From positions 142,287-206,286 of the forward strand of contig JAWKTI010000007.1 of NCBI GenBank assembly GCA_041399155.1: a stretch of DNA of 64,000 nt. Reading direction: 5' to 3'. Made by a program: the position numbers and the translations under genes. The stretch's first letter is position 1; every line of letters starts with the position of its first letter. This document shows positions 1 to 64,000 of the stretch, piece after piece. Source of the stretch: Zavarzinella sp. (GTDB lineage: Bacteria > Planctomycetota > Planctomycetia > Gemmatales > Gemmataceae). The notes under the pieces were generated by a model. The model did not search any database and was not told the origin of the DNA. It saw nothing but the letters and a program-made list of their open reading frames with translations.

Positions 1-1905
1 GAGAAACTTTTCACAAAGCTTGGTCACTTCCCATTGAATGACCAGAGTGCCGAACAGTTGGCAGCATCCCCGATCTGCATGGCGCTGACGAATGCTTTGG
101 ATGACTGGGCCAGCGCCTGCCGCGATACCAGGGAAAAACAGCAACTTTATGCGCTGGCCAAAAAAGCCAGCCCCGACCCACAGTGGGGCGACAAGATCCG
201 CGACCTCGCCAGTAGCAATGACCTGCCAGCACTGAGACAATTGGTACAATCGCAGCCACTCAGTCGTCTTACCCAGCCGCAAATTGCCCAGTTGGCTTCC
301 ACCTTACCGATCAGCGATCCAATAGTAGGAGAGTTGTTGAAAGAAGGCATTACTTCGCACCCCCACGATTTCTGGTTCAATATGCTTGCTGCCAAACGCG
401 CCATCAGCATGTTAAACGGTGATTTCGGCCACGACCGCCGCCAGCAGAATCTGGCGATTGCCCACCTGCATACGGCTCAAGCAGTTCGGCCTGATAGTCT
501 GGGTGCGTTGTTCATGCTGGCATATATTTCCAGTCAGGAAAATTATCCCGAACAGTTGGATCTGCTTGCAAAACAGGCGGGCAAGTTTGATCGGGAACAC
601 TGGATCCCCCACTATATTCTGACAATGGCAGCAGTGCGTCGCATGAATCTTCGAGAAGCGATGCAGCACATCGATCGTGCAATTCAGTTAGAGCCAAATG
701 TCATCAATCTGGGCTATGCCAAAATTCAGATCCACTACATGCTGGGCGAAATCACCGAAGGGGTTAGCGTGTGTCAAGCACTGAAAAAGCAATTCTCGCA
801 TATTCCGGAAGTGAACTTTTATTTATGTGCTGGTTTACTTTATCAGAACAAATATTCCGAAACGCAAAAGCTTGCTCTGGAATATCTGACACTGAACCCG
901 AATCAGCCAGAAATGCGATTAATCCTGAGTGTTTGTCTGCTAGTACAGGGAAGGCTGATCGATGCCAAGCCACTGATCGATTCAATCACTTCCAGCGACA
1001 TGGAACTGGCGATGCAACTGGTACCAGTACGTGCCATGCTTCACTACCTGACTGGTGATCTGGATCGGGCCCAACATTTGCTGAAACAATCAGATTCACT
1101 AACGAAAGATTATCAGACAATGCTCATGTCCGCATTCGTAGCCACATCAAAAGGCAATTTTCAGGAGGCAAAAGAAGCCATTATCCGCGGCAGAACAATA
1201 GTGAATGATAATCGGGTGAATCTCTCTCAAATCGCAGGCAGTATGATTCAAATACAGTTAACCGCCTTCACCAATCACCTGAAAATGTATCAAGGCTTTT
1301 CAGATGCACTTGGTGATCGACTTCCGGGGGTGGTGGATTCCAGTACCGCCACACTGAGAAATCGGCTTGAAGCGATGAATGCTGCAGAATTTTTGTATGC
1401 CAGACAGTTTTATTCAACTGCAACGCAGTTCTACGAACTGGCAGTTTCCACCAGCGCGGGCAGAATAGGAAGTTATGTCCTCAACGTTCAGTGTGGGACG
1501 CGGGTAATGGCAGCCCGCTCTGCCACCCTGGCCTGGTCGGGTGCTGGGCGGGAAGCGTTTCGAACCAAAGATGCCGACCGCGAACGTTACCTGCGATTTG
1601 CGATCCAGTGCCTGCAGGATGAACTCAAGGAGATTCGCCAACAGACCAAACCAGCCACTGGTTTACTGGATCGGATGAATCAAGCCCTTTCTTCACGTGG
1701 TAAATCGGATTATTCAACGCGGTTGGGGATCATTCGCCTGCACCGCGATCTGGAACCACTGCGGGATGAACGCTACCTGCAACAAATGCCGGCAGAACAG
1801 GCAGACACCCTCCGCAAATATTGGAAGGATGTCGATGAGCTGTATGCTTCAATCCATCCCCCACTGAATATTCCGGGTATAAAGCCAGTGTGGATGTTTG
1901 AATAA
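1..1905 (+). CDS. TPR/helical-repeat protein, 5' end probably outside the window
   Basis: Frame 1 is open from nt 1 (EKLFTKLGHFP...) with no stop before the listed TTG at 34. The 623-aa translation is alpha-helical repeat-like (TPR-style A/L/Y periodicity), resembling C-terminal regions of planctomycete kinases and regulators. Confidence 0.55.
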   Translation, partial: EKLFTKLGHFPLNDQSAEQLAASPICMALTNALDDWASACRDTREKQQLYALAKKASPDPQWGDKIRDLASSNDLPALRQLVQSQPLSRLTQPQIAQLASTLPISDPIVGELLKEGITSHPHDFWFNMLAAKRAISMLNGDFGHDRRQQNLAIAHLHTAQAVRPDSLGALFMLAYISSQENYPEQLDLLAKQAGKFDREHWIPHYILTMAAVRRMNLREAMQHIDRAIQLEPNVINLGYAKIQIHYMLGEITEGVSVCQALKKQFSHIPEVNFYLCAGLLYQNKYSETQKLALEYLTLNPNQPEMRLILSVCLLVQGRLIDAKPLIDSITSSDMELAMQLVPVRAMLHYLTGDLDRAQHLLKQSDSLTKDYQTMLMSAFVATSKGNFQEAKEAIIRGRTIVNDNRVNLSQIAGSMIQIQLTAFTNHLKMYQGFSDALGDRLPGVVDSSTATLRNRLEAMNAAEFLYARQFYSTATQFYELAVSTSAGRIGSYVLNVQCGTRVMAARSATLAWSGAGREAFRTKDADRERYLRFAIQCLQDELKEIRQQTKPATGLLDRMNQALSSRGKSDYSTRLGIIRLHRDLEPLRDERYLQQMPAEQADTLRKYWKDVDELYASIHPPLNIPGIKPVWMFE

Positions 1906-11556: not shown

Positions 11557-11921
11557 GCAAATCCTTCATAACACGGCGGTCCAGCCCAATCCAACTGCAC
11601 CCGCCCAAGTTTCGAATGGGTAATTCTATATGTTCTGGGGCACTTTTTGCCCGACTGGTGCCGGAGAAATTACCCGCACCTGAAAGTATGGTGAATACCC
11701 CGTGGGAATGACGAACGATTGATCAGTTCAGGCATTTGGAATGACCAGTTACCCACTCCAATTCTTGACTTCTTGGCATCCTGGCGGCTTGGCGGTCAAT
11801 TTTGCATCCCAAGGGACATGAAACCACCCTTCCAGGTGCTGCGGGCGATGAAGGCGAAAGAAAAACAAACCGGCTAACAATGCAGGAGTTTCGAATTGCC
11901 AATCCTATCGGTCTGCTCTGG

Positions 11922-11965
11922 ATTCCCGCCTTCGCGGGAATGACGGTTGGTTATGAACAACCGTC
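11922..11965. repeat. Two adjacent perfect hairpins (REP-like)
   Basis: ATTCCCGC-CTTC-GCGGGAAT (11922-11941) is immediately followed by GACGGTTG-GTTATGAA-CAACCGTC (11942-11965). They lie in the 550-bp gap downstream of the gene ending at 12106. Confidence 0.4.
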
Positions 11966-12105
11966 TGACGGCAAACTACGGCCAATGCCATCGGCTCACA
12001 AGCAAGCGGACAAGATGTCGGCGGTCCCAGAGAAAACTAACCACATGTGGGCGATTGGCATTCAGCTCGATTTCTCATCCAGCTTTTCTCGCACGGAAAT
12101 CGCCC

Positions 12106-13327: not shown

Positions 13328-13816
13328 TTAACGTGTTGGTGGGCGATATAAAAGCCAGCCACCAAACAATAGTGCGATTGCCCACTGTGCGGTGCTGACG
13401 CACAGATAGCCTGCGTGCCACGGGCGAAACTGTTTCCGCGATATCATTTTTTGGTTTTCCAGATCGATGAACAGGTCCATTTTGATGTGTACCATCACCT
13501 GAGCAATCAGGGTGGCCAGCAAAATTGCCCAGATTGCCGTGGCCCATGCCTTTTTTCTTCTGGAAATGGGCAGCACCGCCAGATAGAGCAGCGCGACAAG
13601 CAACGTCATTCCGCCTGACAGGTTCAAATAGTGCGTAACCTGTTGTGTAATCAGACCTTGCTGAAAATCTGATCCCGTGATTTCGGCTCCGATGGGCACC
13701 ACGATCAGGCCGTAAAACATGAAGCCACCTTGCCAGAAGATCAGCAGAAAAAACAGCACTCCCCGCACCACGTGGGGTGTAGGAAAAGTGCGTTGATCGT
13801 TCTGTGCTTTTTCCAT
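13328..13816 (-). CDS. Small integral membrane protein (4 predicted TM helices)
   Basis: Hydrophobic segments VVRGVLFFLLIFWQGGFMFYGLIVVPIG, LSGGMTLLVALLYLAVL, AIWAILLATLIAQVMV and WAIALLFGGWLLY. It sits 34 nt upstream of the next gene on the same strand. Confidence 0.5.
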   Translation of the reverse strand: MEKAQNDQRTFPTPHVVRGVLFFLLIFWQGGFMFYGLIVVPIGAEITGSDFQQGLITQQVTHYLNLSGGMTLLVALLYLAVLPISRRKKAWATAIWAILLATLIAQVMVHIKMDLFIDLENQKMISRKQFRPWHAGYLCVSTAQWAIALLFGGWLLYRPPTR

Positions 13817-18800: not shown

Positions 18801-18851
18801 GCTTCCTTCAGGCACGAAGTGCCGTCTAGGCCAAGCCCAGTCCGTGAGGGC
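18801..18851. repeat. Left arm of a MITE-like palindromic element split by the IS4 copy
   Basis: GCTTCCTTCAGGCACGAAGTGCCGTCTAGGCCAAGCCCAGTCCGTGAGGGC is about 90 percent reverse-complementary to 20533-20583. It is built from short hairpin modules (GGCAC-GAA-GTGCC; GCCC...GGGC). Confidence 0.7.
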
Positions 18852-20362
18852 CATTGGTGTGAAGGTCTTGAACTGCTGGGAGGATTTGGCTAAGTTCTTT
18901 AAGAGTAAGGTTTTATGTTTTGTCAAGGATTGACAGATGACTTCAAATTCATTCGCTTCAGAGGCTTTATCACGCCTACCTTTAGCCGAAGCCGCTTTCC
19001 TCATGCTTGATGACATTTTCCAAAATAATACGCTTGAAGCGATCTATCAATCAAATCGTGGACGCACCTACACTCGTATTTTGACATTCTCTTCATTTTT
19101 CCAATTGTTGCGAGATTCACTGATTTCTCCCGATCACTCTGCCAGGGCTCGTCTGATCGATGCATCTGAAAACGGTGAATTGCCTACATCGCTCAAAGCG
19201 TTTTATGACAAATTAGCGCATATGCCGCCAGAGGTTGGGGCGGGGCTCCTTTCGCATTCCTATCGGGCTATTTCAAAGCTTTTGCCAAGAAAAATGACTT
19301 CTAAATTACCAAAATCTCTTTGCAAACTTACTGTTGTCGCCGTTGATGGCAAAGTAATTAAGCATACGATGCGGCGCCTTCTTCCTTTAAGAATAAGCAA
19401 GCAAAATGCATCAAAATTGCTTGGAGGAAAGCACTTGTTGCAGTGAATCTGAGTACTGGTCTGGTAATGGAAATGGCTTCGGAATTGGATGGAGAAGCAA
19501 GTGAAACACGCTTGTTAGCTCCACTTTTGCAACAGCTGAAAGACCATTGCGGCGAGAAATTAATTGTGGCGGATCGATGCTATGGTTTCTACAAGCATAT
19601 TGCAATGATCAAGGATGACGGGTGCCATTTTGTTTTACGAGTTGCAAGCATTACCCAATTTATTCAAGATCCGGAAAAACCAGCGAGAATTGGCAAAGAC
19701 CGATATGGCCGAAAACTTATCGAAGAACATGGCTGGATCACAAGTCAAAAGAATACGAAATTGATCGCAGTACGCCGACTGAGCATTATCCGCGATAAAG
19801 TGCAGATACAACTACTAACAGACCTGACCGATTCGAAACGATACCCTGCAGACGACATCGCAGAGATATATCGCTATCGTTGGGATATTGAGCGTGTATA
19901 CGCGACGATTACAAAAGTGTTTCAGTTGCGTCACTTGATAGGTACCAGTCCAGAGGCTGGTTTAATACAAGCATCGCTTTGCCTCATTTTATTTAACATT
20001 ACAGAAGCAATCAAATGGCATATTTCGGTCGGAAACGGAAAGAAAATAGATGAAGTATCTGGCGAAATGCTCTGGCGAGATATCCGAGATGAGGTGATGG
20101 CCGCAACGCGATTGCTTCGAACGCGCGATGTGCAGATGCTGCTTCAAGGGATCAAACAAGAAGTGGGGATATTAGAAAGACTAACTGAATTATTGGGCAA
20201 TCTGTGGAAAAAGAAGTGGGCAAAAAGCAAAGTAGGGCGTACAGATCCTACAAAAATTCCAAATCCAAAACCCCAAAAACTGAAACAGACAACTTGCCAC
20301 GATTCAGTCTTTAGGGTGATGAAGCGAGCAAAAAAATGATGTCCAAGACCTTCACATCAATG
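18852..20362 (+). mobile_element. IS4-family insertion sequence, copy 1 (1511 bp)
   Basis: Terminal inverted repeats CATTGGTGTGAAGGTCTTG (18852-18870) and CAAGACCTTCACATCAATG (20344-20362) match 18/19. It is flanked by the 12-bp direct repeat GTCCGTGAGGGC (18840-18851 and 20363-20374). Confidence 0.85.
18937..20339 (+). pseudogene. IS4-family DDE transposase split by a single frameshift (ORFs 18937-19446 and 19443-20339)
   Basis: DDE candidates VVAVDGKV, LIVADRCY and YRYRWDIERVY...K (YREK-like). Copy 1 has GG at 19426-19427 where copy 2 has GGG (63395-63397). Adding one G fuses the two ORFs (...LLGGKALVAVNLSTGLVMEM...). Confidence 0.78.
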
Positions 20363-20583
20363 GTCCGTGAGGGCTGGGTACAAGATGCTCCCAATGTTGA
20401 AGGCCTGTAAGGCCGTCTCATTTCGCTGTTTTTCTTGAAAACAAGTATTTGTAGGGCGAACTTAGGCATGGGATAGTTGTTGATGTATTCTTTAGATGGC
20501 CTTACAGGCCTGAATTGATGATGTATTGATTTCCCGGCCCTCACGGACCGGGCTAGGCCTAGACGGCACTTTGTGCCTGAAGC
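20363..20583. repeat. Right part of the MITE-like palindromic element (duplicated target, internal hairpins, right arm)
   Basis: Begins with the TSD copy GTCCGTGAGGGC. It contains inverted AGGCCTGTAAGGCC modules and ends with CCCGGCCCTCACGGACCGGGCTAGGCCTAGACGGCACTTTGTGCCTGAAGC, abutting the stop codon of the HEAT-repeat gene. Confidence 0.7.
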
Positions 20584-21774
20584 CTATTTCTTCATCACCG
20601 GTTTTTCCTTCTCTTCTTTCAAATACTTAATCGCTTCTTCGGCTGCTTTTTTCACATTCTCATCAGAATGCTTCGTCAGTGGCTCCAGGCCACGCAGCAC
20701 GGTGGGTTTCAACGACTTCATTGTGGTGGCGGCACCGATGGCAGCAATAATCACCTGGGGCTTCTCCTGGGCATCACTCATCACCGCAATCAAGTCCTGC
20801 AGCCGGGCTTTGGCATCTTCACCCAGATAGGCCAGTGCGGAGCAGGCTTCCACACGCAGTTCGACATCGTCCGCCACGGCCAGGTTTTTGGAAATCGCCA
20901 GTAGACGAGTGGGGGCCATTTTGGCACCATCCGGATCGTATTTAATCAGAAACACATCAGCCCAGATGCGTATCGCCATCGAGCGATCCTGTTGGGAAAC
21001 ACGCCCCAGGATATCGCGACTGTCTTTCAGGTAGATCACCGGCACCGGCCCAATGGTCAACAGAGAATTAATTGCCTGACGACGCACTGGTTCACAGCCA
21101 TCATCACGAAGTGAATACAAAATCGCCTGTACGGCACGTGCATCAACTTCAATCGGTGCCGCACCTTTTTTCAAATCTTCTTCTGAAGGCTGCCACCCCT
21201 GACCCACCTGACCGAGTGCGAAAACCGCATTCCTCCGGACCTGCCACGATTGCAGATCTTTGGTTCTGGCGATCAGTTGTGTCATTAGTTTCCGTGCTTC
21301 CGGGTGGGGGCCCATCGCGGCCAGCGTCGATACCCCTTCATAACGGAGATGCACTGAAGATGGAGAATTCAGAAAGTTGCGTTCAACGACCCCCATGCCT
21401 GTCTTGGTTTGCTGGACAGTTTTGAAACCAAACAGGGGTACCAGGGCCAGTGCGGCAATCCGCACGTTGAAATCAGGATCGACTGTCATTGTCTGGATGA
21501 TCTGGGGGCCTAATTTGTCCGATTCCCCAGCTTTCGGGCCAAACTGTGGGATCATGAAGCAGGCACGCTCGCGTGCCGAGGGATCTCGCTGTAGGCCGGC
21601 ATTCATTTCGGCAATCCACTGGTCGACAGTTTTGCCTTCAATAATACTGGGCCACTCGTCCTTCTTTTCTTCTTTCTTCGGAGGCACCTTCGGATCGGCA
21701 CCCTGTGCCAACAGTTTCTGGGTACCACAACCATACAAAAGCAGTCCTGCAATCAGTAAACGAAACACCGGCAT
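20584..21774 (-). CDS. Secreted HEAT/armadillo-repeat protein
   Basis: The start at MPVFRLLIAGLLLYGCG (signal peptide) has GGGAGG 6 nt upstream. Repeated helical units carry HEAT-like spacing (VRRNAVFALGQVG, VRRQAINSLLTIG, ELRVEACSALAYLG). Confidence 0.7.
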   Translation of the reverse strand: MPVFRLLIAGLLLYGCGTQKLLAQGADPKVPPKKEEKKDEWPSIIEGKTVDQWIAEMNAGLQRDPSARERACFMIPQFGPKAGESDKLGPQIIQTMTVDPDFNVRIAALALVPLFGFKTVQQTKTGMGVVERNFLNSPSSVHLRYEGVSTLAAMGPHPEARKLMTQLIARTKDLQSWQVRRNAVFALGQVGQGWQPSEEDLKKGAAPIEVDARAVQAILYSLRDDGCEPVRRQAINSLLTIGPVPVIYLKDSRDILGRVSQQDRSMAIRIWADVFLIKYDPDGAKMAPTRLLAISKNLAVADDVELRVEACSALAYLGEDAKARLQDLIAVMSDAQEKPQVIIAAIGAATTMKSLKPTVLRGLEPLTKHSDENVKKAAEEAIKYLKEEKEKPVMKK

Positions 21775-31729: not shown

Positions 31730-32000
31730 TAATGTGGCGGGCGGTTTCCGTCAATACGAGTGAATCTCCCACGCAAAGTGGTTGAGATTGCCTAATTTGT
31801 GTAAATTGTTGCCGCCAGGGCAATTCGATGCAGACTATTTTGCCATGTGGGTACTGGGCGAATATCACCCACTTCCAAAGCCAAATCAAATAATTAAACC
31901 AAAATCAGATTGAAAATCGGTGTTTACAGATTTGGTGAGTTATGTTAAGCTGGTCAGAATGTTCAACCTAGGCAAGTCGACCAACCTTTGGAGATCAAGG

Positions 32001-32273
32001 ATGATCCGACCGAACACTACTAAATGGAATCAAACCACCGATGATTTGCGTCGCCTGGCTCTGGAATCCGAGCATCCTCGTACTCGGGAGCGGTTTATGG
32101 CTTTGTACCAAATTGCTCTTGGTCACACTAACGCAACTGCTTATGCCGCAGAAATTGGACGTTGCGACGATGTGTTGTTGAACTGGGTTCATAAATATAA
32201 CAACCATGGACCTGACGCCTTGATTTATCGGCGTACTGGCGGCCGTGTCCCCCTTTTGTCCAGTCGCAGATAG
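32001..32273 (+). CDS. IS630 transposase N-terminal (HTH) ORF
   Basis: MIRPNTTKWNQTTDDLRRLALESEHPRTRERFMALYQIALG...HGPDALIYRRTGGR. GGAG is upstream of the ATG at 32001. Confidence 0.8.
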   Translation: MIRPNTTKWNQTTDDLRRLALESEHPRTRERFMALYQIALGHTNATAYAAEIGRCDDVLLNWVHKYNNHGPDALIYRRTGGRVPLLSSRR

Positions 32274-33097
32274 AGCAGATCGTTGATGCCGTTCTGAAAA
32301 GCGATCCGGTAGATCACCAATTGCCAGGCCACGGATGGACGATCAGGAAGTTGTGCAACTGGATCGGTTGTCAATTCCAGCGGTATGTATCTCGGAATAC
32401 CGTGCGGCGGATCCTGCAATTAGCGGGATTGAGCTGGAAGAAATGCAAGAAACTGTTCGGCAAAGGGGACCCTGAAAAGCGGGCCGAATACCTGAAACAG
32501 TTCGCGGATATGTACCAGCAAATGTGTCGCGGCGATATCGTGATCATTTATATTGATGAATCCCATTTTCATCGTGATATGGACTTGGGCTATACTTGGT
32601 GGCGCAAGGGAGAATCGGCTTGGCGAGTGAGTGATTGCCCTCCGCTGTCCGATCGCATCAACTGGTATGGTGCTTACAATTTCAGTGCTGGTGCATGTTT
32701 GATCTGGAACGAAGGCAAATGCAACAAGGAAAACACGGCTGAATTTTTGCACCGAGTGAACGATTGGGTAGAAAGACAAGGTCGACGTGTTGTGGTAATT
32801 TGGGATGGAGCACCTTGGCACAAGGCGAAGTTCGTTCGAACCAAAGCCAGCGAGTTGGACATCGAAATAGTAGTTTTGCCCAGTTATAGTCCCGATTTCA
32901 ATCCCATTGAAGGGTTATGGAAATGGATGCGTGAAGAGGTCACGCAACATTGTTGTTTTGCAACCTTGCGTGACTTGTTCGACGCTTGCAAAGGATTCAT
33001 CGATACATTGAATGAAACTCCGGATGAAATAATTAAAAGACTGTGGCCAAGATTTGAAGTCGATCCTCAAGCGGAAAAACTCCGATTTTCAATCTGA
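32216..33097 (+). CDS. IS630 transposase catalytic (DDE) ORF in the -1 frame, open from 32216 (first ATG-type start at 32321)
   Basis: IYIDESHFH, VVIWDGAPWHKA and LPSYSPDFNPIEGLWKWMREEV form the DDE triad region. This frame overlaps the upstream ORF across the C5T4 run at 32249-32257. Confidence 0.85.
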   Translation, partial: RLDLSAYWRPCPPFVQSQIEQIVDAVLKSDPVDHQLPGHGWTIRKLCNWIGCQFQRYVSRNTVRRILQLAGLSWKKCKKLFGKGDPEKRAEYLKQFADMYQQMCRGDIVIIYIDESHFHRDMDLGYTWWRKGESAWRVSDCPPLSDRINWYGAYNFSAGACLIWNEGKCNKENTAEFLHRVNDWVERQGRRVVVIWDGAPWHKAKFVRTKASELDIEIVVLPSYSPDFNPIEGLWKWMREEVTQHCCFATLRDLFDACKGFIDTLNETPDEIIKRLWPRFEVDPQAEKLRFSI

Positions 33098-42961: not shown

Positions 42962-43939
42962 TTACGGTACGGTGATCTGGTTGCGGATTTGACGCACACC
43001 TGGGGTCAGTCGGATCATCCCTTCAATCAGTCGACGTTCATCATCGTTGGCGGCACGTCCGGTCAGGAGAATTGCCCCGTTAGCTTCTTCAATGCGAATG
43101 CCTGCGGGATTGGAAATTGTGGTAGATCGTTGCAGCATGGCCTGTAAATCAGTAACAATCTGTGGGATCTGGGGCACTTTCGGGGTAAAGCGGAATGTGG
43201 CAGTGTAAGTGATGACGTTGGGGCCACCAGCCATTTGCGTTGAACCAGCACCGCCAACACCACCTGCACGTCCGCCACCCAGGCCACCTGTGGCTCCTCC
43301 GCCAAAACCAGTAGCCCCACCTGCGCCTCCAAAGCCCGTGCGGCCGGCACCTCCCCCACCTAATGCGTTGGTTCCACCAAATCCTGTGGTGCCACCCGTA
43401 CGTCCTCCACCAAAGCCGCCAGTGCCTCCCGTGGTGCCACCACCGAAGGAAACGGTGCCACCAGTACCTCCGCCTGTGCCACCACCAAAGCCTCCTGTGG
43501 TGCCTCCACCCCCAAAGCCTCCTGTGCCGCCTGTGGTACCACTGCTGCCAAATGAAGATTGGCCAAAACCTTCACCAGTGATGGCACGATTATTGTTGTT
43601 CTGTTCAATCGATTGGGCACCGGTTGCTGCACCTGGGGTCTGAATCTGAACACCCGGCCGTCCGGAATAAAGTGGGTTACTGTAAGTGGCAGCCAGAAAG
43701 TTCGTCGCGTTCGTGGTGCCGCCTCGTCCGGCAGTACCACCCTGACCTCCACCAAAACCACCACCCTGGCCGCCACCAAAACCTTGACCTCCACCTAATC
43801 CACCGCCCGCACCTCCAAATCCGGCACCTCCGCCTCCAAGGCCGCCTGCACCCCCGCCACCTGCACGTTGGGCATAAGTGGTGGTCGAGCAGATACCAAG
43901 TGCCAGGGTACTGATCACGAGCCAGCGATGCATTTTCAT
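42962..43939 (-). CDS. Secreted glycine-rich protein with a C-terminal BON domain
   Basis: Signal peptide MKMHRWLVISTLALGICSTTTYA, about 200 aa of GGxG/GGTGGFGGG repeats, then IVTDLQAMLQRSTTISNPAGIRIEEANGAILLTGRAANDDERRLIEGMIRLTPGVRQIRNQITV (BON-like). Confidence 0.75.
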   Translation of the reverse strand: MKMHRWLVISTLALGICSTTTYAQRAGGGGAGGLGGGGAGFGGAGGGLGGGQGFGGGQGGGFGGGQGGTAGRGGTTNATNFLAATYSNPLYSGRPGVQIQTPGAATGAQSIEQNNNNRAITGEGFGQSSFGSSGTTGGTGGFGGGGTTGGFGGGTGGGTGGTVSFGGGTTGGTGGFGGGRTGGTTGFGGTNALGGGGAGRTGFGGAGGATGFGGGATGGLGGGRAGGVGGAGSTQMAGGPNVITYTATFRFTPKVPQIPQIVTDLQAMLQRSTTISNPAGIRIEEANGAILLTGRAANDDERRLIEGMIRLTPGVRQIRNQITVP

Positions 43940-59493: not shown

Positions 59494-60249
59494 TCATTTT
59501 GGAAAATATTCCATCAGCTTCTGTGCCACCAATTCATGCCCTGCACGGTTCGGATGATTTACCTGAGACATGAAATCAGTCAATTCTTTCCCCGCAGCCA
59601 CGGCTGCCTGGAATGCTGCCAGACTATCCACGAGGCCAACGGCATGTTCTGCCGCCAAGGCTCTGATCTGTGCTGCATGCTGGTTGAGTGGGTCGGTTTC
59701 TTCATTGAGTTTTGCTTTGGTATCCGGCGTGGGGGTCAGCAACAAAACGGGCACCCCTGCCTTTTTTGCAGCCAGAATCATGCTGCTCCAGGCTTTGTGG
59801 GCCGCCTGCAATCCCAGCCGCCGATCGTTCAGTGCATAGTCGATGGTGATCAGATCCGGCTGCAGGGAAAGGACATCTTTCTCGAAGCGTGCCGCACCCG
59901 TTACAGATGCCTCCCCACCGATTGCGGTAACGACCACATTGATGACTGCGGTGGGGAATCGCTCTGCCAGCCCCACGTGCAGCAGGTGGGGGTACGAATC
60001 AAACGTCCTTACCACCGGAGTAACGAAATAACCTGCAGGCACACTATGGCCATGGCAGACAATCCGCAGTGCCCGATTTTTGGGCCACTTCGCCGCAGCC
60101 AGCTCTCGAAACTTGGCAAGATAGGTTTGAGGGTCTACCACTTTGGGTGTGGGACTCTCCTCCCCGCCAAGGGTGCTCTGCTGGATAGCTGTCAAACAAA
60201 TAGCAGCCCCACCGAGCAACGACCGACGCGAAATCTCCAGATGATCCAT
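59494..60249 (-). CDS. SGNH/GDSL-type hydrolase with a Tat-like signal
   Basis: MDHLEISRRSLLGGAAICL (twin-Arg), IVCHGHSVPAG (the block I Ser is replaced in context), ITIDYALND and a DSLAAF...NHPNRAGHE C-terminal block. GGAGG is 5 nt upstream of the ATG at 60247-60249. Confidence 0.72.
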   Translation of the reverse strand: MDHLEISRRSLLGGAAICLTAIQQSTLGGEESPTPKVVDPQTYLAKFRELAAAKWPKNRALRIVCHGHSVPAGYFVTPVVRTFDSYPHLLHVGLAERFPTAVINVVVTAIGGEASVTGAARFEKDVLSLQPDLITIDYALNDRRLGLQAAHKAWSSMILAAKKAGVPVLLLTPTPDTKAKLNEETDPLNQHAAQIRALAAEHAVGLVDSLAAFQAAVAAGKELTDFMSQVNHPNRAGHELVAQKLMEYFPK

Positions 60250-60540
60250 AGCAACCTCCATCGAGTAGGTGGTAATATACAGAGCGGAAGAGCCAATTCG
60301 TCAACGCCGAAATAGGGTATTGATCGCGCAGATTCACGAAAGAGTTTACCAAGTAATTTCTGTTCGATTTCTTTGCACCCTCCAATTCTATTTTTAGCAC
60401 TGTAGGATTTGCTTTGTGAAAGGTCCCAGGAAAAGAATCACCTGTCATTGACTAAATGTACCTATTTTTCATTGCATTTTTCTCATGAGAGATTATTCTG
60501 AATTCAGTTAAGGCCTCAGAAGGCGGAGCCCGACAAAGCG

Positions 60541-60963
60541 ATGACATGGGACGAAGACAGTCTGGAGCACGGATACGTCCTCGACCGGATCGCCAGTGGC
60601 GGGTGGTGGCACCTGCACTTCGGCCGCTCTCGCTGGTCGTACCACTGCGACATGTTGGGTCACCAGACGAAAATCCTGGCGGTACTCCAGAGGTTCGAGG
60701 CGGGGGCGGTCTCTGCGTCGCCGCCGTACTTCCTCACTCTGGACGGCGAGGGCGTGGAGTTATCTGCGTCAGAGGTCTCACTGGATTTCTGTTGGGGTGA
60801 CCGTTTCGCAGATACTGAGTTGGCCGACGAGGCGCGGAACTTTCAGCGTGAGGTCGTGCCACTGCTGCACGACAGCCCTACGTTTCAGCGATCACTGGCA
60901 GAAGTCGTGGCTCTCCAGCAGCACCGACAGGTGGTTGCACCGGGCACTCTCAGAAGGGACTAA
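60541..60963 (+). CDS. Hypothetical protein (cassette-like ORF 1)
   Basis: A 140-aa ORF in a visibly GC-richer block. It starts 27 nt after a GTTAAGG box (60507-60513) and is followed by an attC-like palindrome. Confidence 0.5.
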   Translation: MTWDEDSLEHGYVLDRIASGGWWHLHFGRSRWSYHCDMLGHQTKILAVLQRFEAGAVSASPPYFLTLDGEGVELSASEVSLDFCWGDRFADTELADEARNFQREVVPLLHDSPTFQRSLAEVVALQQHRQVVAPGTLRRD

Positions 60964-61023
60964 CCCTGCACAGGACACAAAGTCACTGATCGCGTCAATT
61001 CTGAAACCAAAGTTGGTTGGTCG

Positions 61024-61154
61024 GCCTAACTTAACGAGACAGCGATTGACTATATAGTTAAGCTGACCGCCGCGAGCGGCCGAAATGAGCGATTGGAGCA
61101 GGAATCGCTTCGTATCCACTGTCGCGACTCTGCTCAATCGCGGCCCCGTTCGCC
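61024..61154 (+). repeat. attC-like imperfect palindrome 1
   Basis: Starts with GCCTAAC (RYYYAAC) and ends with GTTCGCC. GCGATTGA (61042-61049) pairs with TCAATCGC (61134-61141). It is about 80 percent identical by eye to 61643-61768. Confidence 0.45.
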
Positions 61155-61162
61155 GGCAAAAC

Positions 61163-61582
61163 ATGGCACACACTGATCTGCCGTCCCTGAATGTTCAACT
61201 TTGGTATGGGACGATTCTCGTTGCGGACTTGCGTAACGTCATTGCCCACCAAGGAACGTGGTCCGGCGAATACGAACAACGTGTCGCTCCTCAGCAGGGC
61301 AAGTTAGAAACGCGAGTGTGCGATTACATCTCCTTCTGTGAGAAATGGCACAAACGCCTCAAGGAAGACAAGAATCCGAATGCCAAAGAGTTTGACGATT
61401 TCAAGGATGTGTTGAACTCTGGCCTTTGGCATGTGCTTTGTGCGGACGGGGCTGAGTTGAAAATCCCTGACGGCCCGATTTTTGTCCATGGGGAAGCGAG
61501 CTGGAATCATCCAGACAACGAGCCAACGCGAGAGTCTGCAGCCTATGAGTACTGGTGCCAGCGAACCAGCCCTTGCACCTGA
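61163..61582 (+). CDS. Hypothetical protein (cassette-like ORF 2)
   Basis: The ATG at 61163 lies 8 nt after the end of palindrome 1. The product MAHTDLPSLNVQLWYGTILVADL... has no recognised domain. The listed upstream start (61085) lies inside the repeat. Confidence 0.5.
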   Translation: MAHTDLPSLNVQLWYGTILVADLRNVIAHQGTWSGEYEQRVAPQQGKLETRVCDYISFCEKWHKRLKEDKNPNAKEFDDFKDVLNSGLWHVLCADGAELKIPDGPIFVHGEASWNHPDNEPTRESAAYEYWCQRTSPCT

Positions 61583-61642
61583 CCGGGGCCGCCATTCTGT
61601 TTCGCCCGGCATGAAGGATTTGCAGGCGGCCCCGGCAGGTGA

Positions 61643-61768
61643 GCTTAACTGGGTCCGCGATTGAGCATATACTAATGGTGACAGCCTCAGCTGCCTAAGT
61701 GAGCGATTGGAGCAGGAATCGCTTCGAATCCACTCCGCGACTCTGCTCAATCGCGGACCTCGTTAGGC
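61643..61768 (+). repeat. attC-like imperfect palindrome 2
   Basis: GCTTAAC-tg-GGTCCGCGATTGAGCA (61643-61667) is reverse-complementary to TGCTCAATCGCGGACC-tc-GTTAGGC (61744-61768). That gives a 16-bp perfect stem plus 6/7 in the terminal boxes, which fit RYYYAAC and GTTRRRY. Confidence 0.55.
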
Positions 61769-61792
61769 GGCCGAGGGCTTCAGACGTTCCCG

Positions 61793-62410
61793 ATGAAACA
61801 AGCTGAGAAACAGAGGCTCACGGCACTTACCCGCGACGCCGTCGCCCAACTAACCACCTGCCCCTCGAAGGTTAAGGAGCACGCTGAGAAGGTCGCGGCC
61901 CGGTACTCGCCGACGAATGCCGAGCAGTACCGGAAGCTGTCCGAGATCGTCTGGTGGCTCATCGCAGTCGACTGCGTCGAGGATGCGCTGGGCTTGCTGG
62001 ATGCGATCTGCGAGGTGGACGACAATTACTACTGGATGTTCCACGCACTTGGGAGCGCCTTCGCGACACGAGCGTGGCTCCGAGCGAGGTACGAGCAGGT
62101 GGCGGCCGCGCGGGAGGATGCCCTGACTGCCCTCCATTGGATCGGGCGTGACCCGAACTCCAAGGCGATAACCGAATCCGAGGTCCGCGGGGCGCTGGAG
62201 CGGTTCGACGGATGGCTGGAGCGGGCCGCAGGCGAGCGGGGAACGGTGACGGCCTTGCACGTTCTCTCCCACGCACTGCGGGTTCTGGTCATGTATCAAC
62301 AGTTTGCCGTGGCGGGCGATTCCGCCGCCAAGGCGATTCCGCCGGGCGAGTTTACCGCGCGGCTGGAGTCCGGCGTCCAGACGCTGCATCGTCGGATCAA
62401 CAGTTGGTGA
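61793..62410 (+). CDS. Hypothetical protein (cassette-like ORF 3)
   Basis: A 205-aa helical ORF starting 24 nt after GTTAGGC, with no recognised domain. Confidence 0.5.
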   Translation: MKQAEKQRLTALTRDAVAQLTTCPSKVKEHAEKVAARYSPTNAEQYRKLSEIVWWLIAVDCVEDALGLLDAICEVDDNYYWMFHALGSAFATRAWLRARYEQVAAAREDALTALHWIGRDPNSKAITESEVRGALERFDGWLERAAGERGTVTALHVLSHALRVLVMYQQFAVAGDSAAKAIPPGEFTARLESGVQTLHRRINSW

Positions 62411-62776
62411 GGCCGCAGACGCCGCCCCAGGAACTTCCCCAGCTGAAGACTAACGGTTTAATTCAACTCACTTAAATTATTTCATCTGTGAAAGCTAAAA
62501 GTGCTTATTCAACGCGCAAAGATAGCGTCTGACGTGGGTATCTTTTGCAAAAATTCCCCCAGACCTGTTCTTCATAAAATTGTCAAAAACCTGCTCTTTC
62601 CATTCACGCAACAGTGGGTTCCACCTTTTTCAACTCATACTCCAGCACTTTTACCAGACGGTGCAACTGTTTTTCGTGACGGGCATTTACTTCCGCAGCA
62701 AAAGATCATTCCTGCTAATTCGTGGAATCTCCCTCACATGCAAAAGAAAAGGAGGGGAATTCAATTTTCCCATGTT

Positions 62777-62823
62777 GCTTCAGGCACGAAGTGCCGTCTA
62801 GGAAAAGCCCGGTCCGTGAGGGC
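62777..62823. repeat. Second copy of the hairpin-rich repeat arm, again immediately upstream of an IS4 copy
   Basis: GCTTCAGGCACGAAGTGCCGTCTAGGAAAAGCCCGGTCCGTGAGGGC matches 18801-18851 and the reverse complement of 20533-20583. Confidence 0.7.
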
Positions 62824-64000
62824 CATTGGTGTGAAGGTCTTGAACTGCTGGGAGGATTTGGCTAAGTTCTTTAAGAGTAAGGTTTTATGTTTTGTCAAGG
62901 ATTGACAGATGACTTCAAATTCATTCGCTTCAGAGGCTTTATCACGCCTACCTTTAGCCGAAGCCGCTTTCCTCATGCTTGATGACATTTTCCAAAATAA
63001 TACGCTTGAAGCGATCTATCAATCAAATCGTGGACGCACCTACACTCGTATTTTGACATTCTCTTCATTTTTCCAATTGTTGCGAGATTCACTGATTTCT
63101 CCCGATCACTCTGCCAGGGCTCGTCTGATCGATGCATCTGAAAACGGTGAATTGCCTACATCGCTCAAAGCGTTTTATGACAAATTAGCGCATATGCCGC
63201 CAGAGGTTGGGGCGGGGCTCCTTTCGCATTCCTATCGGGCTATTTCAAAGCTTTTGCCAAGAAAAATGACTTCTAAATTACCAAAATCTCTTTGCAAACT
63301 TACTGTTGTCGCCGTTGATGGCAAAGTAATTAAGCATACGATGCGCGCCTTCTTCCTTTAAGAATAAGCAAGCAAAATGCATCAAAATTGCTTGGAGGGA
63401 AAGCACTTGTTGCAGTGAATCTGAGTACTGGTCTGGTAATGGAAATGGCTTCGGAATTGGATGGAGAAGCAAGTGAAACACGCTTGTTAGCTCCACTTTT
63501 GCAACAGCTGAAAGACCATTGCGGCGAGAAATTAATTGTGGCGGATCGATGCTATGGTTTCTACAAGCATATTGCAATGATCAAGGATGACGGGTGCCAT
63601 TTTGTTTTACGAGTTGCAAGCATTACCCAATTTATTCAAGATCCGAAAAACCAGCGAGAATTGGCAAAGACCGATATGGCCGAAAACTTATCGAAGAACA
63701 TGGCTGGATCACAAGTCAAAAGAATACGAAATTGATCGCAGTACGCCGACTGAGCATTATCCGCGATAAAGTGCAGATACAACTACTAACAGACCTGACC
63801 GATTCGAAACGATACCCTGCAGACGACATCGCAGAGATATATCGCTATCGTTGGGATATTGAGCGTGTATACGCGACGATTACAAAAGTGTTTCAGTTGC
63901 GTCACTTGATAGGTACCAGTCCAGAGGCTGGTTTAATACAAGCATCGCTTTGCCTCATTTTATTTAACATTACAGAAGCAATCAAATGGCATATTTCGGT
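62824..64000 (+). mobile_element. IS4-family insertion sequence, copy 2 (runs off the window)
   Basis: Starts with the same CATTGGTGTGAAGGTCTTG end. It is near-identical to 18852-20030 and preceded by the same GTCCGTGAGGGC (62812-62823). Confidence 0.85.
62909..64000 (+). pseudogene. IS4-family transposase, copy 2, with at least two 1-nt deletions relative to copy 1
   Basis: GATGCGCGCC here vs GATGCGGCGCC in copy 1 (near 63353) gives a premature TAA at 63359-63361. GATCCGAAAAA vs GATCCGGAAAAA (near 63645) shifts the frame again (…FIQDPKNQRELAKT… instead of …FIQDPEKPARIGKD…). Confidence 0.8.

Follow-up and report, generated by a model that had tools for sequence, protein, structure and literature searches.

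A probable three-cassette integron-type cluster without a nearby integrase in Zavarzinella sp. (Gemmataceae)

Sedentary chromosomal integron arrays have species-specific attC repeats, for example the Vibrio cholerae repeats. Clusters of attC sites that have no integron integrase (CALINs) are recognised by the IntegronFinder definition (Cury et al. 2016, PMC4889954). Fewer than six sites are present in 83% of CALINs, and three cassettes are a typical size (PMC4889954). The literature documents that Planctomycetes carry integrons, that an attC model exists for this phylum and that CALINs are abundant (PMC4889954, PMC8352920, PMC2426708), and a Planctomycetes-specific attC set and model came from Ghaly et al. 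2021 (PMC8352920). Here, we analyzed a 64-kb stretch of DNA (the window) from a metagenome-assembled genome of Zavarzinella sp. (Gemmataceae, Planctomycetes). Positions 60507-62454 of the window very probably form a three-cassette integron-type cluster. It was classed as a CALIN and not as an integron because no integron integrase gene (intI) was present in the 64-kb window.

Three small open reading frames (ORFs) on the + strand would be the cargo of cassettes 1, 2 and 3: ORF1 (60541-60963, 140 aa), ORF2 (61163-61582, 139 aa) and ORF3 (61793-62410, 205 aa). Between them lie two + strand elements, el1 (61024-61154, 131 nt) and el2 (61643-61768, 126 nt), which we regard as candidate composite attC sites of a type named attC_B. 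el1 is made up of a 5' half-site, GCCTAAC..GCGATTGA, and a core at 61079-61154 that ends in the R' box GTTCGCC (61148-61154). el2 has the 5' half-site GCTTAAC-TG-GGTCCGCGATTGAGCA and a core at 61692-61768, with the R' box GTTAGGC at 61762-61768. The original prediction, made by eye, had put their identity at about 80%; alignment gave 82-83%. A 26-mer core shared by el1 and el2 occurred exactly twice in the 64 kb, against zero expected occurrences. The ATG at 61163 follows the end of el1 by 8 nt and the ATG at 61793 follows the end of el2 by 24 nt, and these coordinates together with the ORF map bore out the claim that the elements separate small same-strand ORFs.

The region 60262-62775 was scanned for inverted repeats. 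The top three were the el2 arms, the el1 arms and an 11-bp perfect hairpin at 61583-61593/61625-61635. The el2 arms were 25 nt long and 88% complementary, including a 16-bp perfect stem, and the el1 arms were 17 nt long and 82% complementary. The terminal boxes of el2 (GCTTAAC/GTTAGGC) paired at 6/7 positions. In el1 (GCCTAAC/GTTCGCC) the R' box deviated, with a C at the first R position. The predicted ends and perfect stem of el2, and the GCCTAAC start, off-consensus GTTCGCC and shorter stem of el1, were thus all found. As single-stranded DNA (ssDNA), el2 was far more stable than its shuffles (z -6.7 for the + strand and -5.3 for the - strand). A second, inner pairing, GCGATT-G-GAGCAG / CTGCTC-AATCGC with a single bulged G, was found in both elements. 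It had been proposed as an alternative to the outer stem. The pairing is real, but it is more than an alternative: the inner 77 nt are a widely conserved attC core. Set against a length range of 57-141 nt and a co-oriented position 3' of a cassette ORF, the elements measured 126 and 131 nt, the core measured 77 nt, and both elements lay between + strand ORFs.

We propose that el1 and el2 would be attC recombination sites of the family attC_B, with the 3' ~77 nt as the canonical core. In order, the core would run from a box resembling R'' through an L'' arm, GCGATT-G-GAGCAG, in which one base is extrahelical, then a variable loop and an L' arm, CTGCTC-AATCGC, to a spacer and the R' box GTTxxxx. 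The 5' extension of ~50 nt would repeat the R''-L'' half-site. Because the half-site is duplicated, the single 3' arm can also form the longer perfect outer stem. Relatives were sought by scanning metagenomes for the inner arms GATTGGAGCAG...CTGCTCAATCG; the related metagenome contigs used for comparison throughout are referred to as L012-L027. The scan returned three true relatives (L023, L025, which equals L026, and L027) and one chance match, L024, which was rejected as AT-rich coding DNA without end boxes.

Common to the three relatives were RYYYAAC-N5-ATT-G-GAGCAG, a variable loop that has its own stem, then CTGCTC-AAT, a spacer and an R' box (GTTAGGC in L025, GTTGGCT in L027 copy 1), followed by an ATG ~40 nt on. 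The exceptions were a degenerate R' in L023 (GTGTGTG) and L027 copy 2, which was cut before R'. The box pairs were CTCTAAC/GTTAGGC in L025 and CGCGAAC/GTTGGCT in L027, and the 5' box of L023 was GCCTAAC. attC_B in these contigs always lay between same-strand ORFs, and L027 had two nearly identical copies flanking ORFs. Model R2 matched el1 at 61079-61156 with 83.5 bits, el1 being in its training set, and el2 at 61693-61770 with 78.6 bits. The 5' extension was shared only with L027, where a second R''-like box is followed by CGCGATTG at the same 44-nt spacing to the inner GCGATTG. The outer stem covaried between el2 (GGTCCGCG/CGCGGACC) and L027 (GGCGCGCG/CGCGCGCC), and the 127-nt L027 copy folded as a three-way junction (z about -9). 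The shared extension and the covarying outer stem indicated that the 126-nt unit is real and conserved in the el/L027 sub-lineage.

A second site type, attC_A, was found between small same-strand ORFs in L022, L020 and L015. Its consensus is GCCGAAC-N5-GCT-G-CAC-CGG-A-CC[stem]...[stem]GG-CCG-GTG-AGC-T-N4-5-GTT(A/C)GGC. Covariation was analyzed with an eight-member alignment, a hand-written structure, 500 shuffles and controls in which the partner was slid by 1-3 columns. In the long helix, 95% of cells were paired and 8/16 pairs had compensatory changes, values that none of the 500 shuffles (0/500) reached; the slid controls paired at only 23-44%. Model R1 found more members in L022, L023 and L025. 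Sites of the attC_A-like and attC_B types co-occurred in the arrays of L023, L025 and L027.

Cassette 2 has an attC_A at 61560-61657 (+), scored by R1 at 84.8 bits as a training member. Its R'' box AGCGAAC (61560-61566) lies within the last codons of ORF2. The site reads CACCTG-A-CCGGGGCCGCC / GGCGGCCCCGG-CAGGTG-AGCT, which includes the 11-bp hairpin described above, and it has no R' of its own but runs straight into el2. The original prediction of attC sites between the ORFs, supported for el1 and el2, had overlooked this attC_A and its hairpin. Cassette 1 probably also retains an attC_A body at the end of its ORF. A possible decayed copy at 60922-61023 (+), CACCGAC-AGGTGG-TTGCAC-CGG-G-CAC ... 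TTGG-TTG-GTCGG-CC-TAACT, was recognised from a weak by-eye likeness, and R1 was silent there. For cassette 3, a decayed attC_A remnant at 62421-62454 (+), GCCGCCC-CAGGAACT-..CAGCTGA-AGACTAAC, on which R1 was also silent, marks the cluster end. BLAST homology of this cassette to L020 and L019 stopped at 62431-62435, and by-eye alignment to the intact 57-nt attC_A of L020 reached 62454.

The units behaved as separate pieces of DNA when the related contigs were compared. Homology of the ORF2 unit to L012/L013/L014 (78%) and L015 (90%) began at 61147/61148 and ended at ~61644. It started at GTTCGCC (61148-61154, +), which serves el1 as its R' box and also bounds cassette 2 on the 5' side, with a presumed crossover at G|TT. 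Upstream of this box each context had its own, unrelated sequence: the window has el1, L012 has the stop codon of a Lactamase_B ORF and six further bases, and L015 has a different imperfect palindrome, an attC_A. Homology of the ORF3 unit to L020 (87%) and L019 (84%) began at 61766-61776, at the GTTAGGC box, and the likeness between L019 and L020 also ceased at the GTT box of this unit. For the ORF2 unit and for the ORF3 unit alike, three independent contexts showed the break at a GTT box, as G|TT recombination predicts. The 5' boundary of cassette 1 is the R'-like box GTTAAGG (60507-60513, +); its counterpart by homology in L022 is GTTCGGCCGCAGAGG, which lies upstream of the ORF1 homologue. 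Every cassette would begin with the TT of a GTTRRRY-type box (GTTAAGG 60507, GTTCGCC 61148, GTTAGGC 61762) and hold one small ORF.

In an integron cassette, the 5' box and the R'' box of its attC derive from one site in the circle and hence are expected to be complementary. For the ORF2 unit, the 5' box and R'' were GTTCGCT and AGCGAAC in L015 (7/7), GTTCGCC and GGCGAAC in L012 (7/7), and GTTCGCC and AGCGAAC in the window (6/7). The ORF1 homologue in L022 had GTTCGGC and GCCGAAC (7/7). The two boxes of the ORF2 unit covaried (A..T vs G..C), and this applied to attC_A, not to el. Because its R'' matches the cassette's own 5' box, attC_A is taken to be the original site of the cassette. The boxes of the ORF3 unit were more decayed, with 6/7 matches in L020, 5/7 in L019 and 4/7 in the window.

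We also compared both families with six class 1 attC sites from three plasmid arrays, those of aadA2, aacA4, ereA2, aac(6')-IIc, arr-3 and lnuF. The layout of the six sites was R''(7)-N5-3 bp-extrahelical C at position 16-stem...3 bp-N5/6-R'. attC_A and attC_B matched this layout, but with a G at position 16. The bulged G was at position 16 in L023, L025 and L027 and at position 17 in el1 and el2, which have a 6-nt spacer. An improvised covariance model, R3, was built from the six class 1 sites only; its sensitivity is low, since it recovered its training sites but missed some genuine class 1 sites outside that set. Over 32 kb of related loci, the six best R3 matches were exactly attC_A/attC_B sites, on the right strand and full-length, with 24.3 bits (E 5e-4), 15.9, 14.7, 12.9, 11.4 and 10.6 bits. 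The prediction of attC-separated cassettes in a CALIN was supported by the GTT breakpoints, by the covariation of R'' and 5' box, by the position of attC_B between ORFs elsewhere and by this class 1-like geometry. The sequence, the structure, the covariation and the shuffled contexts are observations.

A CALIN comprises two or more attC sites less than 4 kb apart and no intI. el1, the attC_A at 61560-61657 and el2 span <750 nt, a count that presupposes that these sites are attC. A complete integron has intI, coding for a tyrosine recombinase that bears the IntI-specific insertion, beside attI and the first cassette; upstream of cassette 1 we found a GDSL-lipase gene instead. By established integron biology, the bottom strand of attC would fold, and if the genome codes for an integron integrase at another place, that enzyme would cut R' between G and TT. 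The cassettes would then be excised as circles and re-inserted. Present activity and an IntI in the genome would be inferences only.

Several results weighed against this interpretation. With IntI1 and XerD as tblastn queries, no tyrosine recombinase turned up in the window or the related loci, as the original prediction had stated for the window; the IntI1 probe was 100% identical to the annotated intI1 of >5000 plasmids. The low-sensitivity model R3 aligned el2 full-length to exactly 61643-61768 (+), with a non-significant 7.3 bits (E 0.53 in 2.2 kb), and it did not align el1 as a whole. In the suggested check of the fold, el2 stood out from its shuffles, but el1 ssDNA folded no better than its own (z -1.7 for the + strand and -1.1 for the - strand). 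The extra base at position 16 is a G on the ORF-sense strand vs a C in class 1 sites. In the long form of el, the perfect 16-bp stem has no extrahelical base, and in the short form the R''-like box ends in AAG (el2) or AAA (el1), not AAC. Only two el copies were present in the window, and no copy of an exact 20-mer of the el core was found in 185,579 species-representative genomes, the 11 matches (20-24 nt identity) all being due to chance. Finally, attC_A lacks R' in cassette 2 and is decayed in cassettes 1 and 3, and the cluster may be an inactive relic.

One IntI1-like stretch of 49 aa was rejected as a candidate integrase. It lies at 31847-31701 (-) with E 0.01, had no Pfam support and falls in an AT-rich intergenic spacer, indicating a chance match. 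It resembles IntI1 residues 90-134 (HGKIVCIELPW vs YGKVLCTDLPW), probably by chance. In L022 (9744-10000), two copies of the 12-mer AAATAGACCGCA, separated by ~50 nt, lie upstream of the first cassette and closely precede the first GTTCGGC box. This pair is reminiscent of the integrase-binding direct repeats of attI, and no integrase lies within 10 kb.

How attC_A and el came to be joined bears on which of them is the working site. In L020, L022 and L015, attC_A ends as ...GTGAG-CT-N5-GTTxGGC, directly with R' and with no el. In the window it ends as ...CAGGTGAG-CT-TAACT-, followed by the el2 body, and the next GTT box is the GTTAGGC of el2, ~115 nt on. Window GAGCTTAACT aligns with L020 GAGCTAACTC-GTTCAGG; the L'-R' spacer of attC_A and the GCTTAAC box of el2 occupy the same place. 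The original prediction had started el2 at GCTTAAC; the box is present, but it overlaps this spacer. In L027, an attC_A-like site keeps its R' GTTCGCG, and 11 nt on there is an el-type element of two half-sites; the first box of this element, CGCGAAC, complements GTTCGCG exactly. This L027 element is an ORF-less mini-cassette. The fusion in the window most likely arose from an L027-like arrangement by a deletion of ~20-25 nt that removed R' and joined the ORF cassette to the ORF-less mini-cassette.

It is possible, though we do not favor it, that el is the leftover of such a separate mini-cassette or nested site. It would have entered at G|TT of attC_A and been fused to it by the ~20-25-nt deletion. 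attC_A would then be the working unit, if there is one, and el a passenger. The L027 arrangement, with its 44-nt GCGATTG spacing, the alignment to the L020 spacer and the el-free attC_A sites of L020, L022 and L015 all favor this explanation, as does the match of the cassette 2 5' box to the R'' of attC_A and not to that of el. Against it, no GTT box is left between attC_A and el in the window. el1 and el2 also have the same junction with the preceding site, which demands a single propagated fusion or a cause for its recurrence. Moreover, the R' of el is the sole R' for cassettes 1 and 2, implying that el supplies the recombination point at present.

That el acts chiefly in expression, as a promoter with a structured 5' leader for the downstream ORF, its attC-like features being secondary or vestigial, appears unlikely, although a minor promoter role would be compatible with the attC reading. 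The idea draws on two sigma-70-like motifs: TTAACG-16-TATAGT in el1 (61031-61058, +), towards ORF2, and TTAACT-17-TATACT in el2 (61645-61673, +), towards ORF3. These were the sole two such matches in 60200-62800, with 0.9 expected by chance, and they lie at homologous spots of el1 and el2, facing the next ORF. The AT-rich region upstream of ORF1 gave no promoter-like site, and RNA from the predicted start would include a fully conserved 60-nt hairpin. However, the two motifs are homologous and hence not independent, and each matches 9/12 positions of a sigma-70 consensus that may not be that of the planctomycete host. The AT-rich -10-like segment is absent from the homologous L027 element. At the RNA level, there was no Rfam family match and the fold z was only -1.9 to -2.5. 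The downstream genes are unrelated, which makes a shared riboswitch-type ligand unlikely.

Promoter and attC properties could also be combined in one site, although we rate this idea as improbable and speculative. el may be a two-register attC, whose 3' arm pairs either with the proximal arm, giving a short form with the extrahelical base, or with the distal arm, in which case the perfect stem is long and the loop branched. An outward promoter would lie between the arms. If this were true, el could alternate between one fold competent for recombination and one that is silent. Expression of the next cassette could be driven from it as well, allowing self-expression in integrase-less, promoter-less clusters. 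The composite build of el, with its two pairing registers, is the only unusual feature of the cluster.

That el1 and el2 are generic intergenic palindromes (of the repetitive extragenic palindrome type, or miniature inverted-repeat transposable elements (MITEs), or terminator hairpins) with RYYYAAC/GTTRRRY ends by coincidence is very improbable, for although the long terminal inverted repeats (25 nt, 88%), the missing integrase nearby, the below-significance scores of the class 1 attC model on el1 and el2 and the insertion sequence (IS) elements nearby would fit it, only two copies exist in 64 kb, both between co-oriented ORFs, the end boxes are by homology part of the flanking ORF units and occur where el is absent, the relatives likewise have same-strand ORFs on both sides and GTTAGGC-type boxes at their ends, no target-site duplication is present, and the hairpins have no T-run and no terminator-like site was called. 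A specific MITE reading of the 16-bp inverted terminal repeats was rejected on the same two grounds, that no target was duplicated and that the end boxes are part of the flanking units.

Other identities of el were tried and discarded. Rfam gave no known RNA family at the gathering threshold for the whole window, and only chance matches at E <= 10 for 60400-62600. A scan for tRNA and tmRNA was empty, and the T-loop-like string TTCGAATCC in el lies outside any tRNA-like fold. As coding sequence, the ATG at 61085 is in frame with ORF2, but an indel breaks the homologous GTG frame in el2. A blastn search of 61555-61775 against 72,556 plasmids matched nothing.

The cargo ORFs were analyzed by homology and structure. 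ORF1, ORF2 and ORF3 had no match in Pfam, NCBIfam or PADLOC, in line with the predicted absence of recognisable domains. ORF1 had 27 homologues (52-68% identity), all hypothetical, one of them named Gemmataceae; its AlphaFold model was poor, too poor for a structure search. ORF2 had only 4 homologues. ORF3 had 64, in many different neighbourhoods, and its 100% match was 'MAG: hypothetical protein R3B84_24245 [Zavarzinella sp.]', encoded on a 255-kb contig. The AlphaFold model of ORF3 (pLDDT 95.6) has ten helices, suggesting an all-alpha helical-repeat protein. The remote-homology check that had been suggested for the ORFs gave for this model only weak TPR-like matches in Foldseek (E >= 0.07, TM <= 0.42).

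In related contigs, the cargo ORFs have homologues within runs of small ORFs that share one strand and have no assigned function (L022 and L021) or in varied neighbourhoods. In L022, a 1.18-Mb contig, the ORF1 homologue heads a run of ~11 small + strand ORFs between moaA and ispF. The lone ORF3 homologue in L019 and the L022 array both adjoin molybdenum-cofactor genes (moaE, moaA); these neighbours may be coincidental or may mark a favoured place in the chromosome. Among the products encoded in related arrays are a CAP12/Pycsar-type TIR-domain protein, DUF5343, DUF4145 and a methyltransferase fragment. The TIR-domain protein (PF10137, E 7e-29; a CAP12/Pycsar effector) is encoded by a cassette at 192-701 (-) of L023, between an attC_B (825-742) and an attC_A-like site (254-183). 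It is a possible anti-phage gene carried in an integron cassette of a relative.

L022 also contains two copies (11880-12085 and 13567-13775) of an ORF-less unit of ~200 nt, bounded by the cassette-like ends GTTAGGCAGAATGAC...GTCATTCTGCCTAAC. These units have internal TTGAC-rich promoter-like sequence, and the first of them is followed by a further attC type, whose stem is GCAGCAACTTCGGC/GCCGAAGTTGCTG. Many cassettes (60507-60530 and 61762-61785 in the window, and several L022 sites) share GGCC-N-CAGAGG or GAGGG immediately behind the GTT box. This Shine-Dalgarno-like motif appears to move with the 5' end of the cassette.

The cluster is set off from its surroundings by base composition. The GC profile showed a GC-rich block that starts exactly at GTTAAGG 60507 and stops near 62454. 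On the 5' side lie genes for a sulfatase and a thiolase, the divergent GDSL-lipase gene and, between the latter and the block, an AT-rich promoter-type spacer (60262-60506). On the 3' side, an AT-rich spacer of 320 nt separates the cluster end from an IS4-type IS element (DDE_Tnp_1; 62775-64000). This element is cut by the window end and is 99.4% identical to the copy at 18803. The two copies (18803-20585 and 62775-64000) have terminal inverted repeats of ~48 nt, and the transposase frame of the copy at the window end is split into several ORFs. Elsewhere in the window, an IS630-like element at 31920-33097 encodes a helix-turn-helix and DDE_3 transposase in two ORFs and adjoins the start of a gene for a 1104-aa membrane-anchored protein. 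Imperfect tandem repeats at 43415-43802, with periods of 18-42 nt, are GCC/ACC-rich and on one strand form a coding repeat rich in Gly/Pro.

Planctomycetes were already known to have integrons and CALINs; the cluster is real but ordinary in kind, and it leaves the current understanding of integrons unchanged. For Gemmataceae, in which few integrons have been characterised, it contributes a documented set of clustered cassettes and the attC families attC_A and attC_B, and it shows that cassettes in this lineage are shuffled between genomes at G|TT boundaries. The two attC families could seed improved Planctomycetes attC models. The fused or nested sites indicate that CALINs can contain decayed, composite sites that automated callers may split or miss.

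Compared with class 1 attC sites (59-base elements, such as those of aadA2, aacA4 and ereA2), the attC_A and attC_B families have the same RYYYAAC...GTTRRRY boxes, position-16 geometry with G in place of C, variable terminal loop and 3-bp-N5/6-R' end. Unlike class 1 sites, el has an extra 5' half-site, giving a second perfect 16-bp stem and a branched fold, and its core has an R''-L'' spacer of 6 nt, not 5. As in CALINs called by IntegronFinder, the window cluster has at least two same-strand attC-type sites, small co-oriented ORFs, no intI within reach and an adjoining IS. It differs from CALINs as defined in that its sites are composite and one attC type lacks R'. With sedentary chromosomal arrays and the Planctomycetes attC set it shares similar attC sites within the array (82-83%), cargo without assigned function, attC families that recur in related genomes and an integron-bearing phylum. 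In contrast to sedentary arrays, the window cluster has three cassettes and no integrase, and its attC_A and attC_B sites are mixed and physically fused.

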